DNA from: Escherichia phage PLYYY01
DNA: 57,025 bases
Reading direction: 5' to 3' (one strand)
Sequence record: MZ911962.1
Under the pieces are notes generated by a model. The model saw only the letters and a list, made by a program, of their open reading frames with translations. It did not search any database and was not told the origin of the DNA. Position numbers and translations under genes: made by a program. How positions within the stretch are numbered: the first letter of the stretch is position 1; every line of letters begins with the position of its first letter. Shown in pieces: positions 1 to 43,881 of this stretch.

Positions 1-879
1 GTGAGCAACACAACTCCAGCAAGCGCGAAGTTTACCCCGTTTCGTGTAACGAGTTCCGGTCTGGATATTAACATTGCGACGCTGGAGTCTGAAGAACTGC
101 GTGATGACGCAGAAACCGCAGACTTCCGTCTTGGCGCTCGAAGCGTTGAAGGTACGGTAACAGGTGAAATGTCCTTCGGTACGTTTGACGACCTCATTGC
201 GGCAGCACTGCGCGGTGAATGGCAGGACAACGTCCTTAAAGGTGGTATTGTTCGCCAGTCATTTACTTTTGTAGACTATAACGCAGATCTGCCATCAGGT
301 AAATACACAATCTATCGCGGTTGTGAAGTTAACAGCATGACTTTCTCATTGTCTGCTGAAAACATGACCACAGTAGAGTTCGGCATTGTTGGTCGCTCGA
401 TGGAAATTGCGGAATCGCTCCCATCTGGTGCAACTATCAAAGACCGTACAACTACTTCACCGATGGACGGCTTCTCCGGTCGCTTGCTGGAAGGCGGTCA
501 GGAAATTAGCGTTATCACGGAAATCGGTCTTACCGTTGAAAACGATATCGCTCCGCGCTTCGTTGTCGGCTCGAAGTTCTCCATTGAACCGTCTGCTGGT
601 CGCCGTGCTGTAACTGGTACAGCTAACGTTTACTTCCTGGATAACAAACTGCGTATGAAGTATCTGGATGAAGTGGAAACTTCAATCAAGTTTGATCTGA
701 TCGACCCAAGCAATCCGGAACAAAAATACACTGTGGAAATCCCTCGCGTGAAATTCACTGAAGCTCCGCGTCCTATTGACGGTGAAGGGGATATCATGCT
801 TAATATGGGCTACCGCGGATTGCTGGACCCAACAACCGCAAGTTCCATCAAAATTACCCGCGTTTTAGCGGCAGCATAA
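1..879 (+). CDS. major tail (tube) protein
   Basis: 292-aa ORF starting with GTG at window position 1 (N-terminus could be cut by the window edge). Sits directly upstream of the chaperone and tape-measure genes in the conserved siphovirus order. No motif-level proof. Confidence 0.6.
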   Translation: MSNTTPASAKFTPFRVTSSGLDINIATLESEELRDDAETADFRLGARSVEGTVTGEMSFGTFDDLIAAALRGEWQDNVLKGGIVRQSFTFVDYNADLPSGKYTIYRGCEVNSMTFSLSAENMTTVEFGIVGRSMEIAESLPSGATIKDRTTTSPMDGFSGRLLEGGQEISVITEIGLTVENDIAPRFVVGSKFSIEPSAGRRAVTGTANVYFLDNKLRMKYLDEVETSIKFDLIDPSNPEQKYTVEIPRVKFTEAPRPIDGEGDIMLNMGYRGLLDPTTASSIKITRVLAAA

Positions 880-888
880 GGATAAGAA

Positions 889-1296
889 ATGACCGACACC
901 AAAAAAGCCAAAGTTGCAGTAGCTAAAAGCTTCCGTGATTTTAAAACTGTGAGCCGGGCAAATGATCCGGCAAACACTAAGCCTATGAATGTGGTTATTC
1001 CTGGTGTAGGCGACACTGGCGAAAAACTCTACATTCGTAGCCGCTACTGCACAGAGTATCGTGACGCAGAATTGAAAGCACAACGTCAACTGTTGGCACT
1101 TATGCAGGGTACAGACGGGGAAGTAACGGATGCTATGAAGGAAGATATCCTTACCCGTTCACTGTGTAATCTTGTAGCAGGTTGGACGTTTGACGAGCCT
1201 CCGACTGTTGACAACGTGTTTGAATTCTTAACGGAGAACCCAACTGTTCGAGAAGACCTTAACGTATTTGCCGCTAAAGATAGTAATTTTTTCTAA
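889..1296 (+). CDS. tail assembly chaperone (lambda G-like)
   Basis: 135-aa ORF with ATG at 889 preceded by AAGGA. Lies between the tail tube and tape-measure genes and ends in the slippery run TTTTTTC followed by TAA. Confidence 0.6.
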   Translation: MTDTKKAKVAVAKSFRDFKTVSRANDPANTKPMNVVIPGVGDTGEKLYIRSRYCTEYRDAELKAQRQLLALMQGTDGEVTDAMKEDILTRSLCNLVAGWTFDEPPTVDNVFEFLTENPTVREDLNVFAAKDSNFF

Positions 1297-1694
1297 AAGC
1301 GCGCAGACAGTTAATTGATAAGAAGATCCTCCAATGGGAACTAAATAGTAAAGTCCCCGGCGGGGGATCTTCTTTATTATCGCAACTGCAAAAGGTTGAG
1401 GAACAGTCTGGTAAGACGCCACCTAAGCTTAAAGAATATCGAGAAAAGGAAATACCGATTTGCTTCGAATATCTATCTACTCTATTTGATGATATTTACA
1501 CTGGAGGAGATTTTAGTTATACAGAATTGCACAGCTATCAAGTGACAATGGGCTTACATCTTCAACCGTACGAATGCGAAATACTGCGGCAGCTATGGCT
1601 TGAAAAGCGCGTGTCAGAAGCTGAACAAAATGCTAAACTCATGGAAAGTCAAATGCAAAATCAAAATAAAGGTAGAAGAAAAAGGAGAAGATAA
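889..1694 (+). CDS. tail assembly chaperone frameshift product (lambda GT-like), predicted -1 frameshift at 1287-1293
   Basis: The -1 frame is open for about 135 codons from 1287 to its TAA at 1692-1694 and has no start codon until codon 88. Heptamer T_TTT_TTC at 1287-1293 sits just before the G stop. The extension stop overlaps the tape-measure ATG (TAATG). Inverted repeat 1321-1329/1365-1373 lies downstream. Confidence 0.55.
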
Positions 1695-4600
1695 TGGCCG
1701 AAACCGCTTCGCTAGTAATCAGAGTTGACGCGAGAGGGATTAGTACCGCGGACTCTATGTTGCGGAACTTAGCGCGTACAGGTGACACAGCGGAGCGGTC
1801 TGCTCAACGTGTTACCTCCAGCTATAAAACATTGTCTAACACATCTAACGAACTTGCAACTGTCACAAGTCGTTTAGATGCTGCAATTGTAGGAATGATT
1901 AGCGTTGACACTATTAGCCGTGTTATATCGCTATCAGACTCCTGGACCATCCTTACCAACAAACTTGAACTAGCTCGTATGGGTAATGAAACCGTTGCGG
2001 ATTCCCAGCAACGTGTATTTGATATTGCCCAGCGTTCCCGTACCAGTTTAGAAGCAACTGCAACTCTGTACTCCCGTCTCCAGCGTGCAATGAAGAATAC
2101 TGGTATGACTGGTATGGAGCTTGGACGTATCACTGAAACAATTAACAAAGCGATGATTGTTTCCGGTGCAACGTCACATGAAGCAAGCGCTGCATTGATT
2201 CAGTTTTCGCAAGCGATGGCATCCGGTGTTCTGCGTGGGGATGAATTCCGCTCTGTTGCAGAACAAGCTCCGCGCTTAACTCAAATCATGTCCGATTCTT
2301 TAGGTGTTACCATTGGACAATTGCGTGAACTAGCCTACAGCGGCAAGTTAACCGCCGATGTGGTTATCAAATCGTTGTCTGGTGCTGCGGATACAATTGA
2401 TAAAGAATTTAGCCGCACTATGCCAACGTTCAACCAGCAATGGACAGTTGCAACAAACAACCTGACTAAGTTTATGGGCGAATCCCAAAAGACTCAAGGT
2501 GCTGTTGCTGCATTGGGACAGACGTTTGTTGCATTATCCGAAAACTTAGGAACGGTTGTAACGGTTGGTTCAGCTTTAGCCACAGTAATTACCGCCCGTA
2601 TCATCACGGCAATGCTGGCCAAGACTAAAGCGTCTATAGCTGCTGCAAAAGCATCTCAGATGGAAGCTGCACAGACTGCGGCAACTACTGCGGTTATGCA
2701 AAGTTCTATTGGCGTTACCGCACAGAAAGCGGCTGCGGATCGTGCCGCTTCGCTTGCAGCGTTACAGGTTGCTCGCGGGTCATTAGCGGTTGCTAAGGGC
2801 ACGGCAGCGGAAGCAGGTGCTCGTCTTGCGCTTATTAATGCTACCCGTGCCCATTCTGCGGCAATTATGGCGGACGTACAGGCGCGGCAGGCGCTCAATG
2901 CTGCTCTTAATGCAACTGTACCAGCCGCAAGCCGGGCAGCTACAGCAATGAGCGTGCTGCGCGGTGCTATGGGGTTAATTGGTGGTCCTGTTGGTGTAGC
3001 AATGCTGGCAGCGGGTGCAATTTACTCCTATAAAGCGTCGCTGGAAGCTGGTCGTGCGGAAAACAATCAGTTTGCAGATAGTGTTGATAGTGTACGCGAA
3101 AAACTGATGCAAATGACGGAAGCTCAGCTGGCAGCTAACGCTGTCAAAGCTAGAGCAATCCTTCCGGAACTTGAAGAGCAAATGAAGCGCGAGCAAACCG
3201 CTCTTAAATCTGCAACGGAAACGCAGAAGTTCTATGAAGCACAATTGAAGCGTCGAGCTGAATCCGGTCGAGATACTGCTAGTGCGGAAAAGAACTTACA
3301 GATTGCTACGGATAACGTCAAGCTAGCTGCTGAACGCGCGGAAGACGCACAACGTCGATATAACAATGTGCTTGAAATGACAAGCCCCGCTATCGAGAAG
3401 ATAATCCCGTTAGCTCGTCAGCTTGCTGCTGATATGAAGGCTGTTCTTAACATCAAATCCGGTCCGCTTATTGACGAGAAAGTTCTTGATCGTTTTAAAA
3501 CTCAGCTAGGTGACGTTAACCGTGAGATTGACGTTAACGCTGTTAAGGGTGCTGGTAATGCTCGTCAATCTGCAATCCTTAGAGGTCTGTATCAAACACT
3601 AGGTAAAGATGCAGACACCTACGGAAGTCTGATTCGCAAAGTAGCTATGGGTCAGGACGTTAGCTCAGAGGCAACAAGCGAGTCCGCTAAAGAGCTTGTT
3701 AAATATGCTCAAGATTTAGCCCAAGCTCTTGGCAAAAACTACGATCTTGAAGAAGCAGAGAGAAACCGGACTAAAGCTACAAAAGACGCTATTAAGGCAG
3801 ATCAACAAAACGCTAAGGTTATTGACGATTTACGAAACAAGCTTAACGAAGTAACCACAGGGGTTAAGGAAAACGCCAAAGCGAAAGCGCAAGCGGTAGC
3901 ACTTAATAAGCTCAATGCGTCTGCAACGGCTGCGGAAAAAGCGGAAGTTGTTAGACTTGCTGCTGCAATCTACGATGCAGAAGAAGCTCAAAAGAAACTG
4001 GACGAGCGTAAGAAGAATCGTAAGTTTGCTCAGGGTCTGTTAGATGAAGGTATGACAGACTATGAAAAAATCGCGTACGAGCAAAATACAAAGATTGCAG
4101 AGCTTAATGCAAAACAACGAGCCGATGATCTAGCTTACTATCAGCTTTACGAAGATGCTAAAACACAAGTCCTGAAGAAAGCAAGTATGGAAAGGGAAAA
4201 CCTGGATAAAGTTCTTATGAACAGGATGATATCCTTTTCTCAAGAATCGTTGGGTGTTATATTGTCAGGTCTGGAAGAAGGTGTTAGTAAACAGAACTTT
4301 ATTTATAAAGCAATGTTTGCAGCACAGAAAGCAATGCAAATTCCCTCAATTCTTGCTAACACGGAAACAGCGGCATCTGCGGCGCTTGCGTGGGGTACAC
4401 AGCAAGGCGGTGCTACAATGGGCGCAGCTATGGCTGGTATAGTAAAAGCTATGGGTTATGCGTCGGCTGCTACTGTGGGTGGCTTAGCAATTGCCGGCAT
4501 GGCACACGACGGTATTGATAATGTTCCGCGCGAAGGTACATGGTTATTGGATAAAGGTGAACGTGTACTTAATGCTCCGTCTAATGACAAGTTAAACCGC

Positions 4601-10044: not shown

Positions 10045-10154
10045 TGTGGTTAAAGATGATAGGTAATATTGTTTTATATTCTAATTTAATTTACCATATT
10101 TGTATGCCATAGTGCATCCATTAATTGATCAACTCTGCGAGACAAGAGGTAAAA

Positions 10155-12707
10155 ATGGCAACTCGTTTATATGGTGTTTTGCTTGACGGATTAAAAAAAC
10201 CAATCGTTAACGCAACGGTTGTCCTCTTAGCAAAAGGGAACACAATAACAGTCCTTAACGGTAGCGAAGCAATCTTTAACACCGATGCTCAAGGCGCTTA
10301 TAATATCACAGTACAGCCTGGTTACTATAAAGTGATCATAGGTCCACAAGGTATTGAACCCTATAAAGCTGGGGAAATTGCAATATATGCTGACAGCCTG
10401 GAAGGCTCGCTTAATAGCTATTTGGTCAACTGGGCAGAAGAAGATTTAACCCCTGAAGTTATTAAACAAGTTAAAGAGCTTGTAGCAATCTCAGAAGAAT
10501 ACTCGCTTCAAGCTGGGCGTTCTGCTGCTGCGGCACAAGCTGATGCTACAGATGCTCGCAATAGCAAGGCTTCCGCTGCCCAATCCGCTTCAGATGCTCT
10601 TGTCTATAAGAATGATTCTAAGACTAATGCTGATGTAGCTAAACAAGCACAAGCTGGAGCTGCTGGGTCTGCTAACACTGCCAGTGCAGCTTTAACCACG
10701 ATTCAAGGTATTCAAAAGGATGTTACCGCATCCAAGGACCGCGCTGTAACGGCAGAAACCAATGCTATGTCCAGCGAGACTGTGGCTACGCAAGCTAAAA
10801 CCGACGCTGTTACTGCTAAAGATCAAGCTATAGCTGCTAAGGATAAAGCTCAACAAATTGCAAATTCAATAGACCCTCAATCAATTAAAAATTCTATAGG
10901 TCTTGGTGTTGAAAGACGCTACCTTTCGGATCTAACAAAGCCTTTCTCAGATGTTGGTTTTTTCATGATCAACTCTAGTACGATTGGGTATCCTTCTATA
11001 GCTGACCAATCAGCTATGTCCGGTTATGTAGCAAGGCAGGATGGTTCACCTTCCTATACGGGACTGTTTGTAGATCCTGGTCATGGTCACGCTTACACCA
11101 TGACGCAATTTAATAATGTTGCAACATTCCGCCAATTAACTTTCTCCGCAGATGTTGATAGAATTAAACAACTATCCTCAGGTACTCGCGTTTACGGCGG
11201 CCCTCAAGATGAACGTTATTTTGAAATTCACACTGGTGCATGGGGTGTTTATAACGTAACACAAAAGAAATGGCTGCCATTAGCCATTCAACAAGGCGGA
11301 ACTGGAGCTGTTAGTGCGGACGATGCATTGAAGAACATTGGTGGGTTCAAAATGCAAAGGGCGTCCCTTTATACAGAAAATTTAAATGATATTACAGGAT
11401 CCAAATGCGGCGTCTATTTTCAAAGTAGCAGTGCTAATGCGTCCAAGGATAGAAACTACCCTGTACAAGTAGCGGGTGTTTTACTCGTATACGCAAGTTT
11501 TGCGAACGGTCCTGAAAGTTGCATACAAGAATATATAGAATATAACACAGGGACAAGATATATAAGAGCTTACAATGTGGGGCCTGGTACTTGGACCCAA
11601 TGGAAGAATGTTGTAGTAGCTGGTCAAAATATAACATTTGCAGGAGTAACCACACGGGGACAGGATACCACATCCAGTTCATTTGTAAGCCAAGTTACAA
11701 ATGCTTCCGGAACTACTATCGGACAGTTTGAAGCAAGAGCAGACACGACTGGAAACGCTTCCCTTATAGTTCGGGATCTTAGCGGTTCCAATTCTAGATT
11801 TTACACATTAAATTTAAACGGGAGTTTTGACGCGCCTGAAGGTTATGCGCTAAAAACAACCTCTGACTGGAATGCATTATTGAATGTGAACGCATCATCC
11901 TTCAAAATGGTTTCCGGTCCAACAAACTCACCAGTTGAAACCGTCAACTATGGTGGGTTCCACCTAAGCTTTAGCGGTAATTACGGCGTCCAGTTTGCTG
12001 GCAGAAATAATGATTACATGCTTCGTGGAATTGAGGCCGGGGAGTATTCCGACTGGAACAGAATTATAGTTGGTACTAAAGCAAAATATATACCTTTCGA
12101 TTCCCGAGATGGTTTTATTAGCGACAATGACGGTAACACCACATGGGCTCCTAGCAATGGGGGCGGTTTCCAAGCCAGTTATGCGGAAAACCGCATTATG
12201 CAAGGATGGATTGATGGAGCTGGTCGTCTTTATGGTCGCTTCTTAACGTCAGATCAGGCAACAACTCCAAAAACCGATGTAGCTTGGAAGAGTTCCGCAA
12301 TGTTGGAGCTGGATAACAGATTCACAGGAACCAATACATTTATCGGGGATGTTGCGTGCAGTGCAGCTAACCCGTTGCGATTAAGATCGGGGAACCCGAC
12401 AATATCATTTGTTGAGTCCGACGCAAGCGAATCTACTTATTTATTTGTAGCAGATGGCGGGGGCTTTAGACTTAACAGGGATACCACAGCTGGAGCAGAA
12501 TTGTTCAGCTACAGCAGATCCCAAAACAATTTAAAGCTGGGAGTAAGCTCGTATTTCACCTTAAACACAAGATTTGATCAAGGCTGGACGTCTAAAGGTT
12601 CCGTAGATGTAACTACTACAGGCTATAGCACAGTCTCGGTTATTACAACGTCTTCTACAGACGCTGTTGGTGCACGAAACCAATTTGAACATCGAGCGTC
12701 AAGCTGA
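10155..12707 (+). CDS. tail fiber protein
   Basis: ATG at 10155 preceded by AGAGG (ORF-track start 10125 is less likely). About 850 aa with an N-terminal Ala/Ser/Thr/Gln-rich repetitive coiled region and a long beta-rich C-terminal part; follows the J-like gene. Confidence 0.65.
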   Translation: MATRLYGVLLDGLKKPIVNATVVLLAKGNTITVLNGSEAIFNTDAQGAYNITVQPGYYKVIIGPQGIEPYKAGEIAIYADSLEGSLNSYLVNWAEEDLTPEVIKQVKELVAISEEYSLQAGRSAAAAQADATDARNSKASAAQSASDALVYKNDSKTNADVAKQAQAGAAGSANTASAALTTIQGIQKDVTASKDRAVTAETNAMSSETVATQAKTDAVTAKDQAIAAKDKAQQIANSIDPQSIKNSIGLGVERRYLSDLTKPFSDVGFFMINSSTIGYPSIADQSAMSGYVARQDGSPSYTGLFVDPGHGHAYTMTQFNNVATFRQLTFSADVDRIKQLSSGTRVYGGPQDERYFEIHTGAWGVYNVTQKKWLPLAIQQGGTGAVSADDALKNIGGFKMQRASLYTENLNDITGSKCGVYFQSSSANASKDRNYPVQVAGVLLVYASFANGPESCIQEYIEYNTGTRYIRAYNVGPGTWTQWKNVVVAGQNITFAGVTTRGQDTTSSSFVSQVTNASGTTIGQFEARADTTGNASLIVRDLSGSNSRFYTLNLNGSFDAPEGYALKTTSDWNALLNVNASSFKMVSGPTNSPVETVNYGGFHLSFSGNYGVQFAGRNNDYMLRGIEAGEYSDWNRIIVGTKAKYIPFDSRDGFISDNDGNTTWAPSNGGGFQASYAENRIMQGWIDGAGRLYGRFLTSDQATTPKTDVAWKSSAMLELDNRFTGTNTFIGDVACSAANPLRLRSGNPTISFVESDASESTYLFVADGGGFRLNRDTTAGAELFSYSRSQNNLKLGVSSYFTLNTRFDQGWTSKGSVDVTTTGYSTVSVITTSSTDAVGARNQFEHRASS

Positions 12708-14413: not shown

Positions 14414-14695
14414 TTAACGCTTATGAAAAGCTGACAGGATTGCAAGTGTTACAGCACCCAATCCGACGACGGTAGCATAAGTGAGTTGGTGTTGAACTTT
14501 AACAAAACCGTAATAGGTGCTAGGGATCTCCACAATCCCAAACGCCATAGCAAAGCTGGTTCCAAGCAGTGCGACAGCAAGGGCGCGTAATAACGCCCTG
14601 CTCATTGCTGTGAAACCTTTCTCGTTACTGTCTCCAGTCATTATAACCACAATAATAAGAAACAGCGCAACAATTACTAGCAGGTATTCCATCAA
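14414..14695 (-). CDS. hypothetical membrane protein
   Basis: 93-aa ORF with two or three hydrophobic transmembrane-like segments. Confidence 0.45.
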   Translation of the reverse strand: MMEYLLVIVALFLIIVVIMTGDSNEKGFTAMSRALLRALAVALLGTSFAMAFGIVEIPSTYYGFVKVQHQLTYATVVGLGAVTLAILSAFHKR

Positions 14696-36999: not shown

Positions 37000-39336
37000 T
37001 TATTTGCTTAAGTCTTTGAAAACACTCTCAATTGACTCGTCTATATACCATCCCAACCCCCTGAAATTACGCTTCAATGCATCCTCACGCGTAACCGGAA
37101 CAAGCGCGCCCATGTCTACAAGTTGTTTGATAGTGAGGTCTGTTGCAGTACCTGCTCCCATCCTGTGATTCTTGAATGCTGCTAACCCGTAGGTTCTGCG
37201 TGTGATAGTTGCCTTCGGAATAATACCGTCAACTCGCAGCTCCTTACGATCACATGCAATTTTACCGCCAAGATAATCTTTGCAGACCTGACAGATAGCC
37301 TTCACACGCGTTTCATCATCACCGCCAATAGTACCTTTTTCCCATGCATTGATCATGATGTCCTGCCCATGCGTAACAAAATCTACCGCCCATTGCATGT
37401 GATTTGGCTGAACGACAGGGTTGATCCAGTTTTCCCCTACCGCTAGCAGGGAGGCAAGACGCAGAGCTTTAAGGTGCGCACGGTTCCACGGCTGACGGAT
37501 AGCTTCGTCTTTAGTTGCGTTAATGTGTTCATCACATAACAAGTTAAACTCCCGCTCAATCCTTTCCGCTTCAGGGCTTAACTGGACGGTAACGGTCTGG
37601 AACTTTGCCATTGTCACTAACGTGTGGTTAACGAGATGGCAGACCATGTCCTTTAATTGTTGTGGCATTGTGATTTCAGGATTTTCGTTTGCAGGAACAC
37701 GATCCCCTTCATATTGCACAATGTGGAAACGGGACAAGAAACCGTCTTCCATCATTTCACGTGTTAACGCTTCAAAGAAGGTGTCCGGTGTTGTTTCGCC
37801 CAGTACGCTGAACGCTACCCCTTCCATCGTTTTGGTATTATTAGCCTTATCAGAATATCCAATACCACCAACAACATCCATCGCACCAGATTTTTGATAC
37901 ACATCTGTAATAGTTTGCTTCAAGGTGTAGTTCGCAGTGCCTGGCTGAGCTGTCGCCATACCTTTAATGGTTTTACCAAACTCACCGTTAATATTCACAA
38001 ACGAAGTATGATCCGCAAAACTTTTACGCAAGGCAGGACCGGAAGCATAGTTAGTCATGTCTACAAATTCATGCACTTGCGGTAATTGCTCGCCTACTTG
38101 CTTGCAGATATAGCTGGGCCCGGCGTGAAGCATTTCTTTGCCCACACCTGATCGGGCGATAAGCACAAAGTAACCGTTCAGTCCAGTGTTGGTGATAGTA
38201 TTCCATACCTTACCGCATACACCTGACAAGAATGCTAACGATGCAGTGATTGCAATTTCTTTCACCGGACGCTGCGATGCCTTGTAGATATACTTCGCAA
38301 GCTCACCAGCAAGACCCGGCGGCCATTCAATAGCGGTTGCATCAATGGACGTGCTTTCTGCAACTACTATTTCACCGGACGGGCTGACTGTGGTTACAGG
38401 CATTTCCGTTACCTGCTGCATTGCACTGTGTGCGGCTTGCATACGGGCAGCGTAATCCCGCGCCAGCGCCGCTACGTTTTCCTGGGCAATGCGTTCACGC
38501 TCCATGCGACCGCGACACATACGCAGGCAACGGTCAATATGAACATTGTTCTTATTAGCCTTCTCACGTTTGCCCAGTGCGCTGTAACGGAACAGACGAC
38601 GACATTGCTCATTACTTTCTGTGTAGAATGCATACATAGAAATAAGAGCAAGATCTGCTTCAGACTGGGAAGGGAATCCCATTTCAACCCATTCGCCATT
38701 GAATAGGCGTGCATACTTATCCCCGTTGTCCGCTTCAAGTGCGCGCTGGTGAATAGTTGCATCGTCTTCTACCGGATCTTTTTCTACCAGTTCGATTTCA
38801 TATGTCTTGCGCTGAAGATCAATTTCATTCACAAGCATAGTAAGATAATGATCACGTTCTGCAACTGGTTTGTTATAGACAGGATTGCCCGTGCAGATAA
38901 TAAAACGCTCCTGACTATAAACCTCGACACCATCACGTCGACGACCTTTACCGATATTTCCTCTTAACCACAGGTGAACACCCAAGCCTGAGCGACTTAC
39001 TTCGGTGTAAGTATCGAACGCGGTCATGATCTGTTCGAAGCGGCGCAACTGTTCCGGCGTCGTGTGCTTCTTGGGATCCGGTTCATTGGTTGCGTTCTTC
39101 ACATCCAGGTCGATGCAGGTGAACGGGTCTTGCGCAGTAAGCACGAAGCCAATATAAGGTTTGTTGAAATGAGCGGCGCAACCTTTAGCAGCTTCAAACG
39201 TCATAAGCATATCCGGATCGGTAACGTCCGCCGCCATCAGGCGCCCGATATCGTTATCCCATACAAGAGGCTTTTTATCCGCATCGGCGACCGCCCATTG
39301 TGGGAAAGCTTTAATTTCAGCGGGAAACAATTCCAT
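37000..39336 (-). CDS. DNA primase-helicase (primase-polymerase-like N-terminal domain plus P-loop helicase)
   Basis: 778-aa ORF. N-terminal region with acidic CIDLDVKN motif typical of prim-pol folds. Central/C-terminal P-loop LIARSGVGKE and helicase-like region. Confidence 0.6.
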   Translation of the reverse strand: MELFPAEIKAFPQWAVADADKKPLVWDNDIGRLMAADVTDPDMLMTFEAAKGCAAHFNKPYIGFVLTAQDPFTCIDLDVKNATNEPDPKKHTTPEQLRRFEQIMTAFDTYTEVSRSGLGVHLWLRGNIGKGRRRDGVEVYSQERFIICTGNPVYNKPVAERDHYLTMLVNEIDLQRKTYEIELVEKDPVEDDATIHQRALEADNGDKYARLFNGEWVEMGFPSQSEADLALISMYAFYTESNEQCRRLFRYSALGKREKANKNNVHIDRCLRMCRGRMERERIAQENVAALARDYAARMQAAHSAMQQVTEMPVTTVSPSGEIVVAESTSIDATAIEWPPGLAGELAKYIYKASQRPVKEIAITASLAFLSGVCGKVWNTITNTGLNGYFVLIARSGVGKEMLHAGPSYICKQVGEQLPQVHEFVDMTNYASGPALRKSFADHTSFVNINGEFGKTIKGMATAQPGTANYTLKQTITDVYQKSGAMDVVGGIGYSDKANNTKTMEGVAFSVLGETTPDTFFEALTREMMEDGFLSRFHIVQYEGDRVPANENPEITMPQQLKDMVCHLVNHTLVTMAKFQTVTVQLSPEAERIEREFNLLCDEHINATKDEAIRQPWNRAHLKALRLASLLAVGENWINPVVQPNHMQWAVDFVTHGQDIMINAWEKGTIGGDDETRVKAICQVCKDYLGGKIACDRKELRVDGIIPKATITRRTYGLAAFKNHRMGAGTATDLTIKQLVDMGALVPVTREDALKRNFRGLGWYIDESIESVFKDLSK

Positions 39337-39357: not shown

Positions 39358-39657
39358 TTAGCCATAAATCTGTTTCCTCCGCCATTCTTCATATGCTGAA
39401 TTATTTGCATCATATACTTCGCAAGCGTCTTTCATGCTGTCGTATAGTCCAAGGAAAGTTCGCCTTGTTTCCCCGCCTGCATCCACCCATGTTAATCGGG
39501 CAAGCCATTTACCCGTTTTATAATCGAAAGTGACACCCTCACGCCCGCTCACATTCTCCCGAGGCACTCGCGGTTTCCGGCGTGCGAGCCCGCGACCTTT
39601 GAAATTACTGCCCGGGACAGTCCTGCACTTACGACCCACGACCAACCTCCGACACAA
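39358..39657 (-). CDS. AP2-domain-like DNA-binding protein
   Basis: 99-aa basic ORF with GVTFDYKTGKWLARLTW...LGLYD pattern resembling AP2/HNH-associated DNA-binding domains. Confidence 0.4.
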   Translation of the reverse strand: MCRRLVVGRKCRTVPGSNFKGRGLARRKPRVPRENVSGREGVTFDYKTGKWLARLTWVDAGGETRRTFLGLYDSMKDACEVYDANNSAYEEWRRKQIYG

Positions 39658-39844
39658 TCCGACCAGCGTGCAACATTAAGACAGGCTCTGCAACTTCGCG
39701 CACGTAAACGTACACATTAGCAATTTTAACTTCGCCCGGCAGTTTACCGCGTAGCGAACACAACTTGCGACGGCTAAGGCCGAAGCGCTTCTCGATTTCT
39801 GATGTGGTTATGTATTTAAGATCAAATTCTTTTTGACAGTCCAT
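39629..39844 (-). CDS. putative helix-turn-helix DNA-binding protein
   Basis: 71-aa ORF, first gene downstream of the large intergenic region. Segment TSEIEKRFGLSRRKLCSL looks HTH-like. Confidence 0.4.
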   Translation of the reverse strand: MDCQKEFDLKYITTSEIEKRFGLSRRKLCSLRGKLPGEVKIANVYVYVREVAEPVLMLHAGRIVSEVGRGS

Positions 39845-40673
39845 ACCTACCTCCTAACAGCACTATACACAATCCATAGTAATGCAGCCACAATTATTCC
39901 ACCTGAAGTTATGATGTGAGCGGATTGTTAATATATAACCACATGTGATGGAAAGTTTTGGGTAGGAATAGTTGGTGCTCCACAGTTTGCGCAATGTGAC
40001 CGAAAGTTTTGTGAGTTTTGCGAAGTTTTGCGAAGTTTTGTGGTGCCACTGTTGCTAAAAACTTTAATAAAAACAATAAGTTGGTGCAGTAAGTTTTTGC
40101 GTTTTGGGGTAAAACGCATTTTTACCCTAACACCCCAAATCCCGACTATTAGTAAAAAACGTATATAAATCAATAGCATAGATACTAAATGAATAGTGAT
40201 TGGAATGGGTAGAAATCCAAATGATGGAAGTGGAATAAATTATTCCTACTTGATAGAATAATGGAATCGGTACTCCAGAGCGCAAAAACCTAAAACTTTC
40301 AGTCAACAGACTAAAAACGGATAGAAACTAAAAGTTAATAAGTAATACCATAAATATATATAAAATAAGGATTTATTAGTAATGTATATAGTACATATTG
40401 GTATTATTTGAATGTTTTTGGGTCATTGTTAAAAAGTCCCAAAACTCACAAAAAGTGAAAGAATACAATTCGTGACAGGATTGTTAATGGAATATGGTGT
40501 ATGGATATACAGTATTATTCCAGATTCCGGAATAATTGGAATAATGGAATAAATTATTGAACTATTGTGATCGGAAGGTATATCAAGCTATAATGCGCTT
40601 AATCGCGGGATATTGGAGGAGGACTTTATTGCGCGGTTAACCGGACCAGTAGGAGGGCTGGCCCGGAAGTAGT
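39845..40673. promoter_or_regulatory. AT-rich intergenic region with iterons (candidate replication origin and/or early promoter cluster)
   Basis: About 830 bp without ORFs >60 aa. Tandem 10-bp units at 40001-40040. Multiple GGAAT(A) repeats, the palindrome GGAATAAATTATTCC (40232-40246) and a second copy of GGAATAAATTATT at 40546-40558. 14-bp inverted repeat TTTTGTGAGTTTTG (about 40007-40020) versus CAAAACTCACAAAA (about 40440-40453). Confidence 0.5.
40001..40040. repeat. tandem array of four ~10-bp direct repeats (consensus CGAAGTTTTG)
   Basis: cgaaagtttt-gtgagttttg-cgaagttttg-cgaagttttg read directly; a fifth copy gaaagttttg at 39951-39960. Confidence 0.8.
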
Positions 40674-41000
40674 TTAGAGCTGTACAGGTGTGAAGTGGGC
40701 TAGCGTATCGTCGGACATAATACCCGACAGTTTTTCGCTTACCCAGTCGGACCAAATGCTATCCGGTTCCTGGCGATGCACAAACCAGATTTCGGATGTG
40801 CCTTCTTTGCGCATCGGTTGCACTTCTGCAAGGAACTTGTCCTGCATAAGGCGGGTGAAGCAGACGCTGGTCATTGGAACCGGCTTTTCGTCTTTATTGT
40901 AATAAGGGACCAATATTTTATTCCCGAAGTCGGCAACTTCATAAACCGTTCCTTTTCGCAAGCCTCGGATGTCAGTGTAAGAGCGGATGAACTTTTTCAT
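40674..41000 (-). CDS. hypothetical protein
   Basis: 108-aa ORF with ATG at 41000 preceded by AAGGA. Confidence 0.45.
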   Translation of the reverse strand: MKKFIRSYTDIRGLRKGTVYEVADFGNKILVPYYNKDEKPVPMTSVCFTRLMQDKFLAEVQPMRKEGTSEIWFVHRQEPDSIWSDWVSEKLSGIMSDDTLAHFTPVQL

Positions 41001-41002
41001 AT

Positions 41003-41179
41003 TTATTTCCTTACGAACACAGAGCCTACGAATAATGTTGACTGAGTGGCAGCTTGCTCGATTAATTCGCCAACAAGCTGGGACTGGTTTAGAGGTTTAA
41101 GGCCTTCTTTGGCGCGTGCTTCATTTACACGACGTTGAAGGTCTTTTAAGTATTGAGTTGCGAAGCTATCTAATTGCAT
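41003..41179 (-). CDS. hypothetical small protein (58 aa, below ORF-track cutoff)
   Basis: ATG at 41179 preceded by AAGGA. Stop at 41003-41005 directly abuts the start of the downstream gene. Confidence 0.35.
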   Translation of the reverse strand: MQLDSFATQYLKDLQRRVNEARAKEGLKPLNQSQLVGELIEQAATQSTLFVGSVFVRK

Positions 41180-41234
41180 CTTCTTATCCTTAGGGCTCCC
41201 GCAGAAGCCCGTCAGTGAACAGTGTGGTTATAGA

Positions 41235-41909
41235 TTATGCGTCCAGGCCGTTGTATTTGCGCCAGGCGTAGAACTGAATGGCTACCGTTGTTCCGTTGTA
41301 AGAAGGCATTGCAGCTTTCATCTCTTTCAGCTCCGGCGTGCGGCCCAGCTCCTTCAGAAGCTTGTCACCCATTGCCCACACTTCGGCAGTTTTTCCTTTC
41401 AGCGGCTTGCGAGCGCCATTTTTGAAATCACAGCGAGCAGCTTTTGCATCCTGTTTTGGTGCGGCAGCTTTTGGCTCTTCAATTTTGATTTCAGAAACCT
41501 GCGTGGCAGCTTTTGCGTGTTTCATATCTTTCTCTTCCTCCTGCTCCAGAGCTTCGAGGCAGCTTTTGACAATTTCCGGATTTACCATCGGACGCAGTAC
41601 CGAGACGCTAGCAGCTGGCGCGGCGGTCGGTGCTGGGACTTTCTGCTCGGGCTTTTGCGCTTTTTCGTGATCGCGCAGAACCTGAAGGACTTCCTTTTCG
41701 ATGATGTAAAAACCGATATCGTCCTGATGGATTAACTGTTCGTGTGCGTCGCGTGCAACCTGGCCCCAGCGGGTCTTAAGAGCGCGGCGTGCATTCGTTT
41801 TCATGGTGTAGCGCATTTTGTCCTGTTCGCGGTGAGTTACTTTAGACATGGTATAGCTCCTTTCGTTAAAGTTAGTTTGCTTATTATTGCCTACCGTGAT
41901 AGTAGGCAA
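41235..41909 (-). CDS. hypothetical charged protein sharing a C-terminal domain with the 24834-25646 product
   Basis: Likely start at internal ATG 41849 (AAGGAG 7 nt upstream). Lys/Ala/Glu/Pro-rich middle. C-terminus ends FYAWRKYNGLDA, like YARWKKFNG in the other protein. Confidence 0.5.
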   Translation of the reverse strand: MPTITVGNNKQTNFNERSYTMSKVTHREQDKMRYTMKTNARRALKTRWGQVARDAHEQLIHQDDIGFYIIEKEVLQVLRDHEKAQKPEQKVPAPTAAPAASVSVLRPMVNPEIVKSCLEALEQEEEKDMKHAKAATQVSEIKIEEPKAAAPKQDAKAARCDFKNGARKPLKGKTAEVWAMGDKLLKELGRTPELKEMKAAMPSYNGTTVAIQFYAWRKYNGLDA

Positions 41910-41917
41910 GGTATAAG
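41881..41917 (-). promoter_or_regulatory. promoter-like element with dyad symmetry (minus strand)
   Basis: Minus-strand reading gives TTGCCT, a 16-17 nt spacer and A/T-rich -10-like AATAAT. The -35 is embedded in the inverted repeat TTGCCTAC-N7-GTAGGCAA. About 30 nt upstream of the 41849 start. Confidence 0.4.
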
Positions 41918-41922
41918 AAAAC

Positions 41923-42171
41923 TTATTGCACGATTGCTACGAAATCGACGGTTGCGATGTCCATGCTAGCGAAAGCAACGATGCCATAGTCGGTGTCGTG
42001 TTCGGCGGTAAACGCTTTGAGGAACTGCTGTACTGCTGCTTTATGGTTAAGCGTTACGTCGATAGTATAGTCCCAGCTATAGACTTTGCGCTTGCCAAAA
42101 CCTTTAACTGCAATGCGTGCGCCTTTGGTGTTAGTTGGTGCCAAAAATTTGGTGACGATAGAAGTAGCCAT
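41923..42171 (-). CDS. hypothetical protein
   Basis: 82-aa ORF with ATG at 42171 preceded by GAGGA. Confidence 0.45.
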   Translation of the reverse strand: MATSIVTKFLAPTNTKGARIAVKGFGKRKVYSWDYTIDVTLNHKAAVQQFLKAFTAEHDTDYGIVAFASMDIATVDFVAIVQ

Positions 42172-42200
42172 GATGTATATCCTCGTTTTGTTTAAGTTGA

Positions 42201-42239
42201 CTTATTATTGCCCAGTCGGATCAACTAGGCAAGATATAA
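42201..42239 (-). promoter_or_regulatory. second copy of the promoter-like element (minus strand)
   Basis: Shares CTTATTATTGCC...AGGCAAG(A/G)TATAA with the 41881-41917 element; same position relative to the downstream start codon. Confidence 0.4.
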
Positions 42240-42240
42240 A

Positions 42241-42453
42241 TCACTTAATTTGTACCAAATCGTATTCTTTGTAAATTTCGCTAATGTACATATCGAACTG
42301 GCCCATTAAGAAGATTTCGGCCTCCTCCCAGCTTGGGGCAGATACATAACCAGCTATTTTACCGGACGCGAGTTCCACTAATTTGAATTCCATGATGCAA
42401 CCCTTAATGTGGTTAAGCAGTATTGCTTTGTTGAAGTAATAATAGCCTTGCAT
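42241..42453 (-). CDS. hypothetical protein
   Basis: 70-aa ORF; real start may be the internal Met (MEFKLVEL) at 42393. Confidence 0.35.
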   Translation of the reverse strand: MQGYYYFNKAILLNHIKGCIMEFKLVELASGKIAGYVSAPSWEEAEIFLMGQFDMYISEIYKEYDLVQIK

Positions 42454-42714
42454 CGTGATATTGAATAGGCCAAAAGTGCTATTTTGATATTGTTTTGCAT
42501 CTAGTGAAAATTATGCTTGCCTTGCATGTTTAGCACTAATGGCCTAACTAACATCACACCATCTGGAGTATTCGCGCGGGCACACACACATACATATAAA
42601 GCTGCCAAATATTTTTATAAAAAGATGCAAAAAGGTGTAGACACATGATCGGTCTAGCACTACTATATACACATACCGCAAGGGTACTACAAATTAACTT
42701 AAAGGGTTCACATC

Positions 42715-42999
42715 ATGTCCATCGTTACTATGTCGTTCTTCGACTATTGCAATAACGAAAAACAAATTATCGTTAACCTGCAAAAAGGATCTGTTGTCGC
42801 ACGCAATGCTAACCGCCAATGCATCGCGCTAACCGATTTTGCTTTCCGGCTTAACGTGGACAACACCACCGCCAAAAATATCGTTCACGATACGGCGATG
42901 GAAGCCGCTCATGCTGCGAAGGATAAAGGTATCCGCGCAGCACGCGAAATCATGCACAAAGCGCTCGGCATCACGTTCTTCGTTGGCATTAAGGGGTAA
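42715..42999 (+). CDS. hypothetical protein
   Basis: 94-aa ORF, first plus-strand gene after the divergent AT-rich region 42454-42714. Confidence 0.4.
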   Translation: MSIVTMSFFDYCNNEKQIIVNLQKGSVVARNANRQCIALTDFAFRLNVDNTTAKNIVHDTAMEAAHAAKDKGIRAAREIMHKALGITFFVGIKG

Positions 43000-43447
43000 C
43001 TACTATGGCACGCAAATACTCGCTTACACGCGCGCAGCACGCGCTATTATTGCAGGTTATGCGCATGGAGTACGAGGAGACTACATGGGCGCAGGCTATG
43101 CAAACTGGGCGCGAGTTCTACGCGCAATTAATAGCACAAAATGCCTAGACAACATGATCGGTCTGGTGGATACTACACACATCAACCAAACAACGGGGGT
43201 AAACAAAATGCGTAGTTTCAAATGTGTAAGCGTAAACGATAATGCTAAGGCTAGTGCTAAGGGTCTGTTCACAGTAGGTAATGTGTATGACTTCAACATG
43301 GAAAGTTATATACACATGACCCTCACGGGCGTAATGTTCGGCGACGTTGGTGCGGTGCGCTGCGAATTAAACAAGTACACGGAAAAGGAATATGCTCTTA
43401 TCAGCCGCTACACGGGCGAGCCGTTAGCTGTGTTCCATGCAGCTTAA

Positions 43448-43881
43448 GCTATAACGCACACAGCGCCACGCTAGCGAGCTAATGCACAAAGGTAATGGTA
43501 ATGCATTAGCTCGGGCGAAACAGGCGCACAGCGTCGCGCACAGCTCGCACAGCGCACACCGACCCACGCAGGCCCAGCCTCGCGACCCCACCCATCCTTT
43601 TCCAGGTACTTGGATCGCTGGGGCGTGCCCTATCCATCCTGATAGTAAGTCCACGCCTAAATCTCACCCATCACATAGCCTATCCACCTACATCCATGAC
43701 CCCACCTACCTTCTTTTTGAATATATTGCGCTCATCCTTTCTAAATATATGGATTTTGGTAGTAAATTCTAAGTCGTCAACGTATAATTCGTCTTGTAGC
43801 TACTCCATAGCTACCATCTTTAAGCGGATGCGACCAATTTCTATCAATTCTTACCAGTTTTAGAGCATCAAGGAGGTATTT
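43448..43881. promoter_or_regulatory. non-coding region with a long palindrome and GC-rich short repeats
   Basis: 11-bp perfect inverted repeat GAGCTAATGCA / TGCATTAGCTC at 43476-43512. Repeated CGCACAG units around 43520-43560. C-rich repeats (TATCCATCC, TATCCACCTACATCCATGACCCCACCTACC). Palindrome GTAGCTA-N5-TAGCTAC about 43797-43815. Confidence 0.4.

Follow-up and report, generated by a model that had tools for sequence, protein, structure and literature searches.

We know of no experimental work on where replication starts, or on how early genes give way to replication genes, in the Queuovirinae, a subfamily of widespread Escherichia coli phages that carry 7-deazaguanine DNA and are well represented in the BASEL collection. 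This question is raised by a non-coding gap at positions 39845–40673 of Escherichia phage PLYYY01 (record MZ911962.1), a Seuratvirus of this subfamily; the whole stretch of 57,025 nucleotides that was analysed is referred to here as the window. An initial annotation, made from the sequence alone, had described the gap as an AT-rich region with iterons beside an initiator/primase module and had proposed a replication origin, with early promoters or a small RNA as alternatives. The present analysis tentatively identifies the gap as the best candidate for the origin and the control region of the leftward replication operon, in which putative protein-binding arrays stand beside a meltable core.

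A conserved core and an exchangeable cassette

The gap has a GC fraction of 0.35 versus approximately 0.44 for the window, as expected from its description as AT-rich, and the claim that it is the largest stretch free of open reading frames (ORFs) is borne out in substance at both length limits: the longest stretch of the window without ORFs of at least 60 amino acids (aa) is 40180–40673 (494 bp), and the longest without ORFs of at least 40 aa is 40307–40587 (281 bp). Over 39600–40900, the window is 94–98.5% identical to nine E. coli Seuratvirus phages, including ECP2304, RCIP0359, OddieOddie, GottfriedDienst (Bas21) and Skure, and approximately 74% identical to Salmonella phage STP-SP5; at the gap itself the identity to ECP2304 and GottfriedDienst is approximately 98%. 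The length of the gap is constant (828–829 bp) in eight close relatives, and the GottfriedDienst and Skure records leave the same span without annotation.

The view of the gap as one element holds for its right 390 bp, which are genus-wide, the core at 40283–40673 being found in all 34 Seuratvirus records, but not for the left 440 bp, a lineage-specific cassette that is present in only about ten Seuratvirus records. The lineage-variable segments are 39845–40282 and 40455–40558. The elements of the gap that bear on an origin are as follows.

39845–40673, unstranded: the whole non-coding gap, between a 108-aa gene (minus strand) and a 71-aa winged helix-turn-helix (wHTH) gene (minus strand)
39911–39945, unstranded: 33-bp block TGATGTGAGCGGATTGTTAATATATAACCACAT, conserved in STP-SP5
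40001–40043, plus strand: phased T-tract array GAAAGTTTTGTG AGTTTTGCG AAGTTTTGCG AAGTTTTGTG with period 10, an extra unit at 39951–39964 and a predicted bend
40201–40267, unstranded: left GGAAT cluster, comprising TGGAATGGG, the palindrome GGAATAAATTATTCC and GAATAATGGAAT, from repeat counts
40283–40335, unstranded: left end of the core, phased A-tracts with the invariant AAACTTTCAGTCAAC (40293–40307), from the ten-gap alignment and a curvature peak
40350–40411, unstranded: AT-rich block, candidate DNA-unwinding element, nearly invariant in ten diverse gaps
40431–40453, unstranded: inverted copy of the T-tract units (AAAAAGTCCCAAAACTCACAAAA), which pairs with 40007–40029
40489–40558, unstranded: right GGAATAAT cluster, with copies at 40489 (plus), 40514–40521 (minus) and 40529, 40538 and 40546 (plus)

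The anatomy of the core was obtained from an alignment of ten diverse Seuratvirus gaps, in which the AT-rich block stays nearly invariant even in lineages whose flanks diverge. Nearest-neighbour energies reveal that no duplex of the window is less stable than 40320–40420 at scales of 40, 60, 100 and 200 bp, with z-scores of approximately 4.4–4.6 (4.56 for the segment). Additionally, two of the 12 highest curvature peaks of the window lie in the gap, as calculated with a wedge model and the parameters of Bolshoy et al. 1991: the A-tract segment peaks at 40308 (rank 2, z=4.39) and the T-tract array at 40026 (rank 9, z=3.75). The second least stable duplex of the window, 10051–10111 (z=3.4), lies inside a 76-bp ORF-free spot between divergent genes (10045–10120), which adjoins a site of the octamer TGTGGTTA, described below, and a promoter-like TTAACA-N17-TATAAT at 10276.

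All of the repeats listed in the initial annotation are present, and they occur far above chance. The 829-bp gap holds 7 of the 18 window copies of GGAATAA, against 0.16 predicted from its frequency elsewhere in the window (Poisson P=5e-10), together with 8 of 42 copies of TGGAAT (P=6e-8) and 7 of 21 copies of AAGTTTT (P=3e-9). The exact sequence GGAATAAT has 10 window copies versus 2.4 expected, and half of them (5 of 10) are in the gap. The other copies are found in coding or ribosome-binding-site contexts, which argues that GGAATAAT acts at one locus and not on a regulon; a genome-wide promoter or regulon motif was rejected on this ground. In the right cluster, the copies at 40529, 40538 and 40546 are arranged head to tail with a spacing of 8–9 bp, and the cluster is kept in the window group (the window phage and its close relatives), STP-SP5 and Dru_SM1 and replaced by unrelated sequence elsewhere. 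In the left cluster, the palindrome GGAATAAATTATTCC lies at 40232–40246, TGGAATAAATTATT from it recurs exactly at 40545–40558, and the window and STP-SP5 have just three differences over 40235–40264. The 33-bp block carries one TGTGGTTA site (39936–39943, minus strand) as well as one arm of a perfect 10-bp inverted repeat (ATGTGGTTAT/ATAACCACAT) whose second arm lies inside the wHTH gene, at 39802–39811.

The tandem array of 10-bp units was recovered by Tandem Repeats Finder at 40004–40040 (period 10, 3.8 copies, consensus AAGTTTTGCG) with a score of 60, the highest in the window, and the separate unit reported at 39951 was found again, 39943–39960 being 89% identical to 39994–40011. The long-range inverted repeat, given as 14 bp, is in fact longer, since 40007–40029 is 87% complementary to 40431–40453 over 23 nt. 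The reading of the array as classical iterons is not upheld in the form in which it was proposed. In STP-SP5, the array retains only TTTTG and a phase of approximately 10 bp while the other positions vary, and this pattern, together with the curvature peak, indicates that an intrinsic bend describes the array no less well than classical iterons do.

A cumulative GC-skew analysis, which had been suggested as a check, places the global minimum of G−C at 39,903, inside the gap, and the maximum at 14,525, where transcription units converge. Among the minus-strand genes, those right of the gap (40674–42453) have a skew of approximately 0 to +0.1 and those left of it −0.09 to −0.22. Because the right-hand minus-strand genes are without negative skew, the switch occurs at the gap and not at the divergence of transcription at 42454–42714. 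The position of the minimum gives modest support to an origin near 40 kb.

Co-inheritance of the repeats with small genes

At the homologous position, GGAATAA repeats and GTTTTG T-tracts are found in the window group and STP-SP5, TATAGTG arrays in CSP1, WildeMaa, phiG7, SA126VB and Dru_SM1, and TATAGGG arrays in Seurat, CAjan and SLUR76; in the complete Seurat genome, 7 of the 10 TATAGGG copies lie in its gap (P of approximately 1e-14). In the TATAG[T/G]G lineages, the gap is separated from the wHTH gene by a gene of 247–271 aa (Seurat gp62, PHROG 27223). The window group is without a gp62 gene, and the possibility that the left half of its gap is a decayed gp62 gene was discarded, as tblastn gave no signal.

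The wHTH protein (PHROG 11967, present in all lineages) exists in variants that sort by repeat type and differ in the predicted recognition helix, and the gp62 variants sort by repeat type likewise; repeat co-variation is seen only with these two small genes. A scan of IMG/VR with the wHTH alignment returned only three loci, all of which match the three known cassette types, and a close-homologue search returned only five close relatives of the wHTH protein, none with Pfam domains. As judged from these comparisons, the repeats belong to a cassette with small, putatively DNA-binding genes. Recombination breakpoints are located at 40283 and between 39336 and 39629. Because the primase is 100% identical in phages with other cassettes and the core resumes at 40283, the repeats move as one module together with the wHTH gene and the AP2 or gp62 gene.

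The argument of the initial annotation, that iterons beside an initiator/primase module suggest an origin, fails at this point. The primase-helicase is 99.9–100% identical in WildeMaa and SA126VB, which carry TATAGTG repeats, and since a near-identical protein accompanies different repeats, the primase is not their specific reader and was rejected as an iteron reader. The same applies to packaging proteins: between the window and Seurat, which differ in repeats, the small terminase is identical at 184 of 185 residues and the large terminase at 515 of 519. Terminases that are near-identical while the repeats differ argue that the lineage-specific repeats are not terminase sites, and the small terminase was likewise rejected as their reader.

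Flanking putative DNA-binding proteins and the primase-helicase

The genes to the left of the gap are as the initial annotation described them, HTH-like, AP2-like and primase-helicase genes that are all on the minus strand and downstream of the gap, which thus sits at the head of the replication genes.

39629–39844, minus strand: 71-aa winged helix-turn-helix protein (PHROG 11967, Seurat gp61 family), with lineage-specific variants that track the repeat type
39358–39657, minus strand: protein of 99 aa (or 93 aa) with a disordered basic tail followed by a predicted DNA-binding domain of AP2/ERF fold, from Pfam and a structure model
37000–39336, minus strand: 778-aa primase-polymerase/helicase with an NrS-1-type helix-bundle domain (PF22763) and DUF3987, from a domain search

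The model of the 71-aa protein is a beta-alpha-alpha-beta-beta winged helix with a predicted local distance difference test score (pLDDT) of 83.5, and Foldseek matches it to BldC, RdfS, SoxR, NmlR and RacA at probabilities of 0.8–0.9 and template-modelling scores of approximately 0.5–0.6. The protein has no Pfam match, and a sequence-profile search of the PDB returned nothing significant, so that its membership of the MerR/excisionase type is an assignment by fold; a profile search of PDB sequences with gp62 likewise returned nothing significant. Proteins of the BldC, excisionase, RacA and MerR types bind direct-repeat arrays cooperatively and bend DNA. The wHTH gene directly precedes the primase gene in Seuratvirus, Nonagvirus (JenP1), Vidquintavirus (Vid5) and Nipunavirus (PaMx25).

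The 99-aa protein matches Pfam AP2 with E=2.5e-4 and 21.7 bits, under the cut-off of 33.3. Residues 40–99 of its model have a pLDDT of approximately 80, and Foldseek gives probabilities of 1.00 for WRI1-DNA and 0.99 for AtERF1, yet with E-values of 0.05–0.09. The slot between the wHTH and primase genes holds differing stand-alone AP2-like proteins by lineage (L001:3497-3766, L004:1021-1266, L011:949-1161 and L009:609-1133), and in Dru_SM1 and ECP2304 it holds a full HNH-AP2 endonuclease. The AP2-like proteins of the slot may be domesticated or decayed DNA-binding modules of homing endonucleases, or they may be phage transcription factors.

On the other side of the gap, the 108-aa gene (40674–41000, minus strand) lies upstream. 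Its substitutions relative to relatives fall mainly at third codon positions, which indicates that this gene is real.

Predicted promoters and hairpins within the gap

The putative transcription signals recognised in the gap are listed below.

39893–39920, minus strand: putative proximal promoter of the wHTH-AP2-primase operon, −35 CTCACA (39920–39915), N16, TGG and −10 AATAAT (39898–39893)
40098–40127, plus strand: terminator-like hairpin TGCGTTTT-GGGGT-AAAACGCA followed by TTTTT (z=−2.4), not conserved in STP-SP5
40403–40432, minus strand: leftward promoter-like TTAACA-N18-AATAAT, with its −10 in the invariant block and a −35 region that varies between lineages
40565–40594, plus strand: rightward sigma-70-type promoter TTGTGA-N18-TATAAT, invariant in all ten aligned lineages
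40600–40680, plus strand: two-hairpin element (40600–40639 and 40641–40666) with GGAGG-type sequences in both loops

The proximal element would drive the replication operon. STP-SP5 shares both hexamers of this element, the TG and the spacing of 16 nt but differs at about half of the spacer bases, and a GGAATAAT copy (39893–39900) overlies the −10 of the element. Conservation of the rightward promoter ends a few bases past the −10 in STP-SP5, Dru_SM1 and SLUR76, where a plus-strand gene follows, and such a loss of conservation directly behind the −10, at the point where downstream sequences diverge, is characteristic of a working promoter. It is predicted to drive an inserted plus-strand gene, for an HNH endonuclease or a 158-aa protein, in three other lineages; in the window, it faces the 3' end of the genuine, convergent 108-aa gene, and the right GGAATAAT cluster stops 6 bp short of its −35. 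Both conserved promoters thus have hexamers 16–18 bp apart that are kept while spacer or flanks diverge, the pattern expected of sigma-70 promoters. The leftward site at 40403–40432 is a weak promoter candidate, and a transcript from it would run straight into the AT-rich block.

The two hairpins at 40600–40680 are kept in the ten-gap alignment where the 108-aa gene follows, and the element is annotated as a terminator in SA126VB. It may specify a short or antisense RNA from the rightward promoter, or it may be a bidirectional terminator between convergent units.

A possible mechanism and its precedents

The elements can be arranged into two modules. The core (40283–40673) comprises the curved A-tracts, an AT-rich block of approximately 60–100 bp, the leftward −10-like element at the right edge of this block, and the invariant rightward promoter with its two-hairpin stop. 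The cassette (39845–40282 and 40455–40558) contributes about ten GGAATAAT-type sites and the phased T-tract bend, the sites forming two clusters that flank the AT-rich block plus copies beside the proximal promoter of the operon. The MerR/Xis/BldC-type wHTH protein encoded by the cassette, and possibly the AP2-fold protein, would bind the repeat arrays cooperatively, and the intrinsic bends would help to build a nucleoprotein complex. This complex would set the activity of the wHTH-AP2-primase operon promoter and would open the AT-rich block, or expose it via transcription, upon which the primase-helicase may load and prime. A local architectural role such as origin opening is favoured over that of a regulon regulator, since the sites are at one locus, flank the most meltable DNA in this lineage and accompany an invariant core, a skew minimum and a wHTH-primase pairing.

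Several known systems resemble this arrangement. In the lambda origin with its O protein and in the origins of Staphylococcus aureus pathogenicity islands (SaPI), where two iteron sets flank an AT-rich stretch, arrays of short repeats adjoin or flank a meltable AT-rich segment by the replication genes, as in the gap, and the repeats are exchanged together with a linked DNA-binding protein between related phages. The systems differ in that the helicase-primase here is without specificity, the candidate binders are a 71-aa wHTH protein and an AP2-fold protein instead of an O-type or Rep-type initiator, and sister lineages of the window phage have one-sided repeats. The clustered short repeats and the adjacent AT-rich unwinding element of iteron origins are thus found in the gap, and co-variation of the repeats with the primase is not.

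The T4 origins oriF and oriG and the primary origin of T7, with its phi1.1A/B promoters and AT-rich region, likewise have a promoter-like element at the edge of the most meltable DNA near the replication genes, in lytic phages that supply their own replisomes. In the gap, by contrast, the leftward promoter is weakly defined with an unconserved −35, and the best-conserved promoter points away from the AT-rich block. A third likeness is to BldC, lambda Xis and recombination directionality factors, which polymerise head to tail on direct repeats: their fold matches the prediction for the 71-aa protein, and head-to-tail repeats of 8–10 bp and bends are nearby. The window phage differs in being lytic, without an integrase or recombination sites, and the sequence similarity of its 71-aa protein to this group is not significant.

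The proposal of an origin in the initial annotation is therefore sustained in part: the gap is non-coding, carries non-random repeats, heads the replication genes and includes the least stable duplex and the skew minimum, but the link from iterons to primase has fallen. Several observations weigh against an origin. Neither DnaA boxes (TTATCCACA, up to one mismatch) nor an IHF consensus were found within 39845–40673, features expected of a host-type, DnaA-dependent origin. The primase-helicase does not co-vary with the repeats, and in the lineages with gp62 the repeats do not flank the AT-rich block but lie to one side of it. Curved, AT-rich stretches ahead of genes are a common mark of strong promoters as well, phage GC skew largely follows transcription, and the G-rich repeats of the gap themselves contribute to the local skew minimum. 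In phage-inducible chromosomal islands (PICI) and P4-type elements, the pairing of wHTH and primase genes can be purely transcriptional, with AlpA-type activators. A literature search returned no mapped origin, transcription map or termini for Seuratvirus, and no mapped origin or transcripts in the subfamily.

The adjacency of gap and primase module is also not general, since a distance of 2.7 kb separates the analogous gap of Nonagvirus JenP1 from the HTH-primase pair. In this unannotated 940-bp gap (KP719132.1, 51800–52739), T-tracts of the GCAAAGTTTTTGC type accompany a central AT-rich part that contains long inverted repeats, and a promoter, TTGCTA-N17-TATAAT, is directed rightward. The T-tracts, AT-rich centre and rightward promoter shared with JenP1 indicate that the architecture of the gap recurs outside the genus.

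Alternative readings of the gap

A purely transcriptional switch, with the origin elsewhere or replication driven by recombination, is nearly as likely as an origin in the gap, because of the promoter evidence and the precedent of AlpA-type activators. The gap would then contain a terminator of early leftward transcription and the autoregulated promoter of the replication (middle) operon, at which the wHTH or AP2 protein of the cassette would occupy GGAATAAT operators; the T-tract and A-tract bends would, like the AT-rich block, be upstream promoter elements, and the convergent promoter would produce a short antisense or terminated RNA. The AlpA-type wHTH activators that precede the primase genes of PICI provide the precedent, and the location of the gap between small early genes and replication genes fits a switch. 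The early promoters proposed in the initial annotation are equally alive as an explanation, given one invariant sigma-70-type promoter and a second with conserved hexamers and a diverged spacer. The GGAATAAT copies over the −10 at 39893–39900 and 6 bp from the −35 at 40565 are placed where a bound protein could regulate both. For the homologous gap, the SA126VB record lists a terminator and a promoter close to consensus, and in Seurat the TATAGGG sites overlap a TTGCAA-N17-TACCAT element beside gp62, as read from the sequence. The authors of the phage 9g study interpret their intergenic region as divergent regulated promoters with phage regulators (PMC4276943). On the other side, about ten sites that span 700 bp and flank the most meltable DNA of the genome are more than autoregulation needs, and a 60-bp block is nearly invariant, yet each lineage seems to own a proximal promoter in its variable part. 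The GC-skew minimum also lies at the gap and not at the divergence at 42.5 kb, and a generic sigma-70 scan shows no enrichment in the gap (4 found vs 4.9 expected), with few strong matches genome-wide.

A physical genome end in the gap, which would be compatible with the other readings, is unlikely. A long direct terminal repeat would have its left boundary at the palindrome (40232|40233), and part of the conserved sequence would serve in the processing of concatemers and in packaging, whose sites typically combine repeats with bent DNA. The ECP2304 record OR880647.1, 98.5% identical here, contains an exact direct terminal repeat of 3,695 bp (1–3695 = 59896–63590), the first base of which corresponds to window position 40233, the second base of the palindrome GGAATAAATTATTCC, and the last to approximately 43632. 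Both boundaries fall in non-coding DNA, which argues against a random assembly overlap; however, this is a single database record for which an assembly overlap is possible, and a comparison of its two repeat boundaries revealed no common motif. The terminases, near-identical to those of Seurat despite the different repeats, also count against such an end. A related phage of the queuosine cluster has been typed as 'T5-like' by PhageTerm (PMC6893657), but PhageTerm failed on other Seuratvirus assemblies, which came out as circles. If the terminal repeat of ECP2304 is real, each genome end would carry a copy of the small early genes at 40674–43632.

The right edge of the ECP2304 repeat lies inside a second non-coding stretch, 43448–43880, which is strongly C-rich (GC skew −0.24) and holds GCGCACA tandem repeats (43524–43558) and recurring CCCACC(T/C)A motifs. 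Nonagvirus 9g also has a terminal repeat, with a mapped end in an untranslated promoter region (PMC4276943). This 603-bp control region (Kulikov et al. 2014, PMC4276943) resembles the gap in that it belongs to the same subfamily and is long and untranslated, with predicted promoters, repeats and nearby regulators. It differs in being the early/late divergent region, which is not homologous to the gap; the Nonagvirus counterpart of the gap is the JenP1 940-bp region, and the mapped end of 9g was therefore rejected as a direct analogue. The positional counterpart of the 9g region in the window is 42454–42714, a 261-bp intergenic region between diverging minus- and plus-strand blocks.

It is improbable that the region serves to encode small RNAs, namely a two-hairpin RNA of approximately 75 nt from the rightward promoter and perhaps others from the AT-rich core. 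This promoter is invariant and has no protein gene downstream in the window, and RNA from 40600–40685 folds at −30.8 kcal/mol on the plus strand (z=−3.07; z=−2.5 on the minus strand). On the other hand, no Rfam family was matched at the gathering threshold (the best sub-threshold match had E=1.7 and 18.5 bits versus 51.1 required), the two-hairpin element offers no covariation because its copies are identical, and the hairpins could be a mere bidirectional terminator. Folding of the AT-rich core was not significant (z=−0.5 and −1.65), and a structured RNA there was rejected. The small-RNA reading would cover only about 10% of the region; a scan for tRNA and tmRNA found none.

The idea that the left part carries genuine small protein genes, as annotated in OddieOddie and KS_W4, can be given hardly any weight: minus-strand ORFs of 43–83 aa do cover it, and STP-SP5 has an 87-aa ORF in the position of the 83-aa ORF, but the two products are unrelated (BLASTP E=13 despite approximately 74% DNA identity), the indels between STP-SP5 and the window break the frame, not being multiples of three, a PHROG search of these ORFs gave no match, and no Shine-Dalgarno sequence is read upstream of the ATG. 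The ORFs, which are not conserved as proteins and were rejected as genes, can arise by composition alone because the strand is T-poor.

A candidate primase recognition octamer

The search for DnaA boxes brought up the octamer TGTGGTTA (reverse complement TAACCACA), which has 45 copies in the window versus 1.8 expected. It is the most frequent 8-mer in the window, in Seurat (42 copies) and in 51.5 kb of the Pantoea phage Vid5, which is of unrelated sequence (42 copies), and TGTGGT[TC]A is frequent in JenP1 and PaMx25. The copies are spaced more evenly than random (coefficient of variation 0.51–0.65 vs 0.97) at a mean of approximately 1.25 kb and are confined to coding-permitted frames (Val-Val, x-Thr-Thr and Asn-His). 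Between the window and Seurat, 36 of 40 sites are conserved, with a mismatch rate four-fold below that of the flanks. The strand bias of 27 vs 18 is not significant and was rejected as a marker of origin or terminus. Two copies in opposite orientation, 39803–39810 (plus) and 39936–39943 (minus), bracket the start of the wHTH gene, a pairing that is within chance expectation. A literature search found no report of the TAACCACA motif.

For NrS-1 polymerase, the recognition sequences 5'-TTTGGTTA-3' and 5'-GTG(G/A)-3' have been determined experimentally, and its helix-bundle domain is held to bind the recognition site (PMC8718748). The octamer TGTGGTTA contains both of these sequences (TTTGGTTA and GTGG). 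In light of its frequency, even spacing and conservation, the NrS-1-type helix-bundle domain of the primase and the presence of both NrS-1 sequences, TGTGGTTA is likely to be the primase recognition site of these phages.

A more specific form of an origin in the gap, in which an NrS-1-type primase-polymerase system operates with a cassette-type origin, seems doubtful. The wHTH protein would be the recognition factor that polymerises on the lineage repeats and opens the core, and the primase would then prime at its own sequence, which would consist of TGTGGTTA and also of TTTTGTGA/G, found in the inverted T-tract arms (40007 and 40446) and pointing outward from the core. Recurring about every 1.3 kb, TGTGGTTA would then be a built-in, genome-wide priming code conserved across genera, a suggestion that is equally far from probable.

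Implications for the biology of the Queuovirinae

The analysis defines a target of 830 bp, with coordinates for every element, for the study of replication and its control in these phages. The parts that are universal in the genus are separated from those that are exchangeable and may confer specificity, which suggests swaps of the repeats and/or the wHTH gene between lineages, and the primase and the terminase are excluded as readers of the repeats. The TGTGGTTA observation would make site selection by the primase of a phage with a primase-polymerase/helicase testable with oligonucleotides. If the region is the origin, it would additionally provide a handle for the engineering or plasmid-based propagation of these phages.

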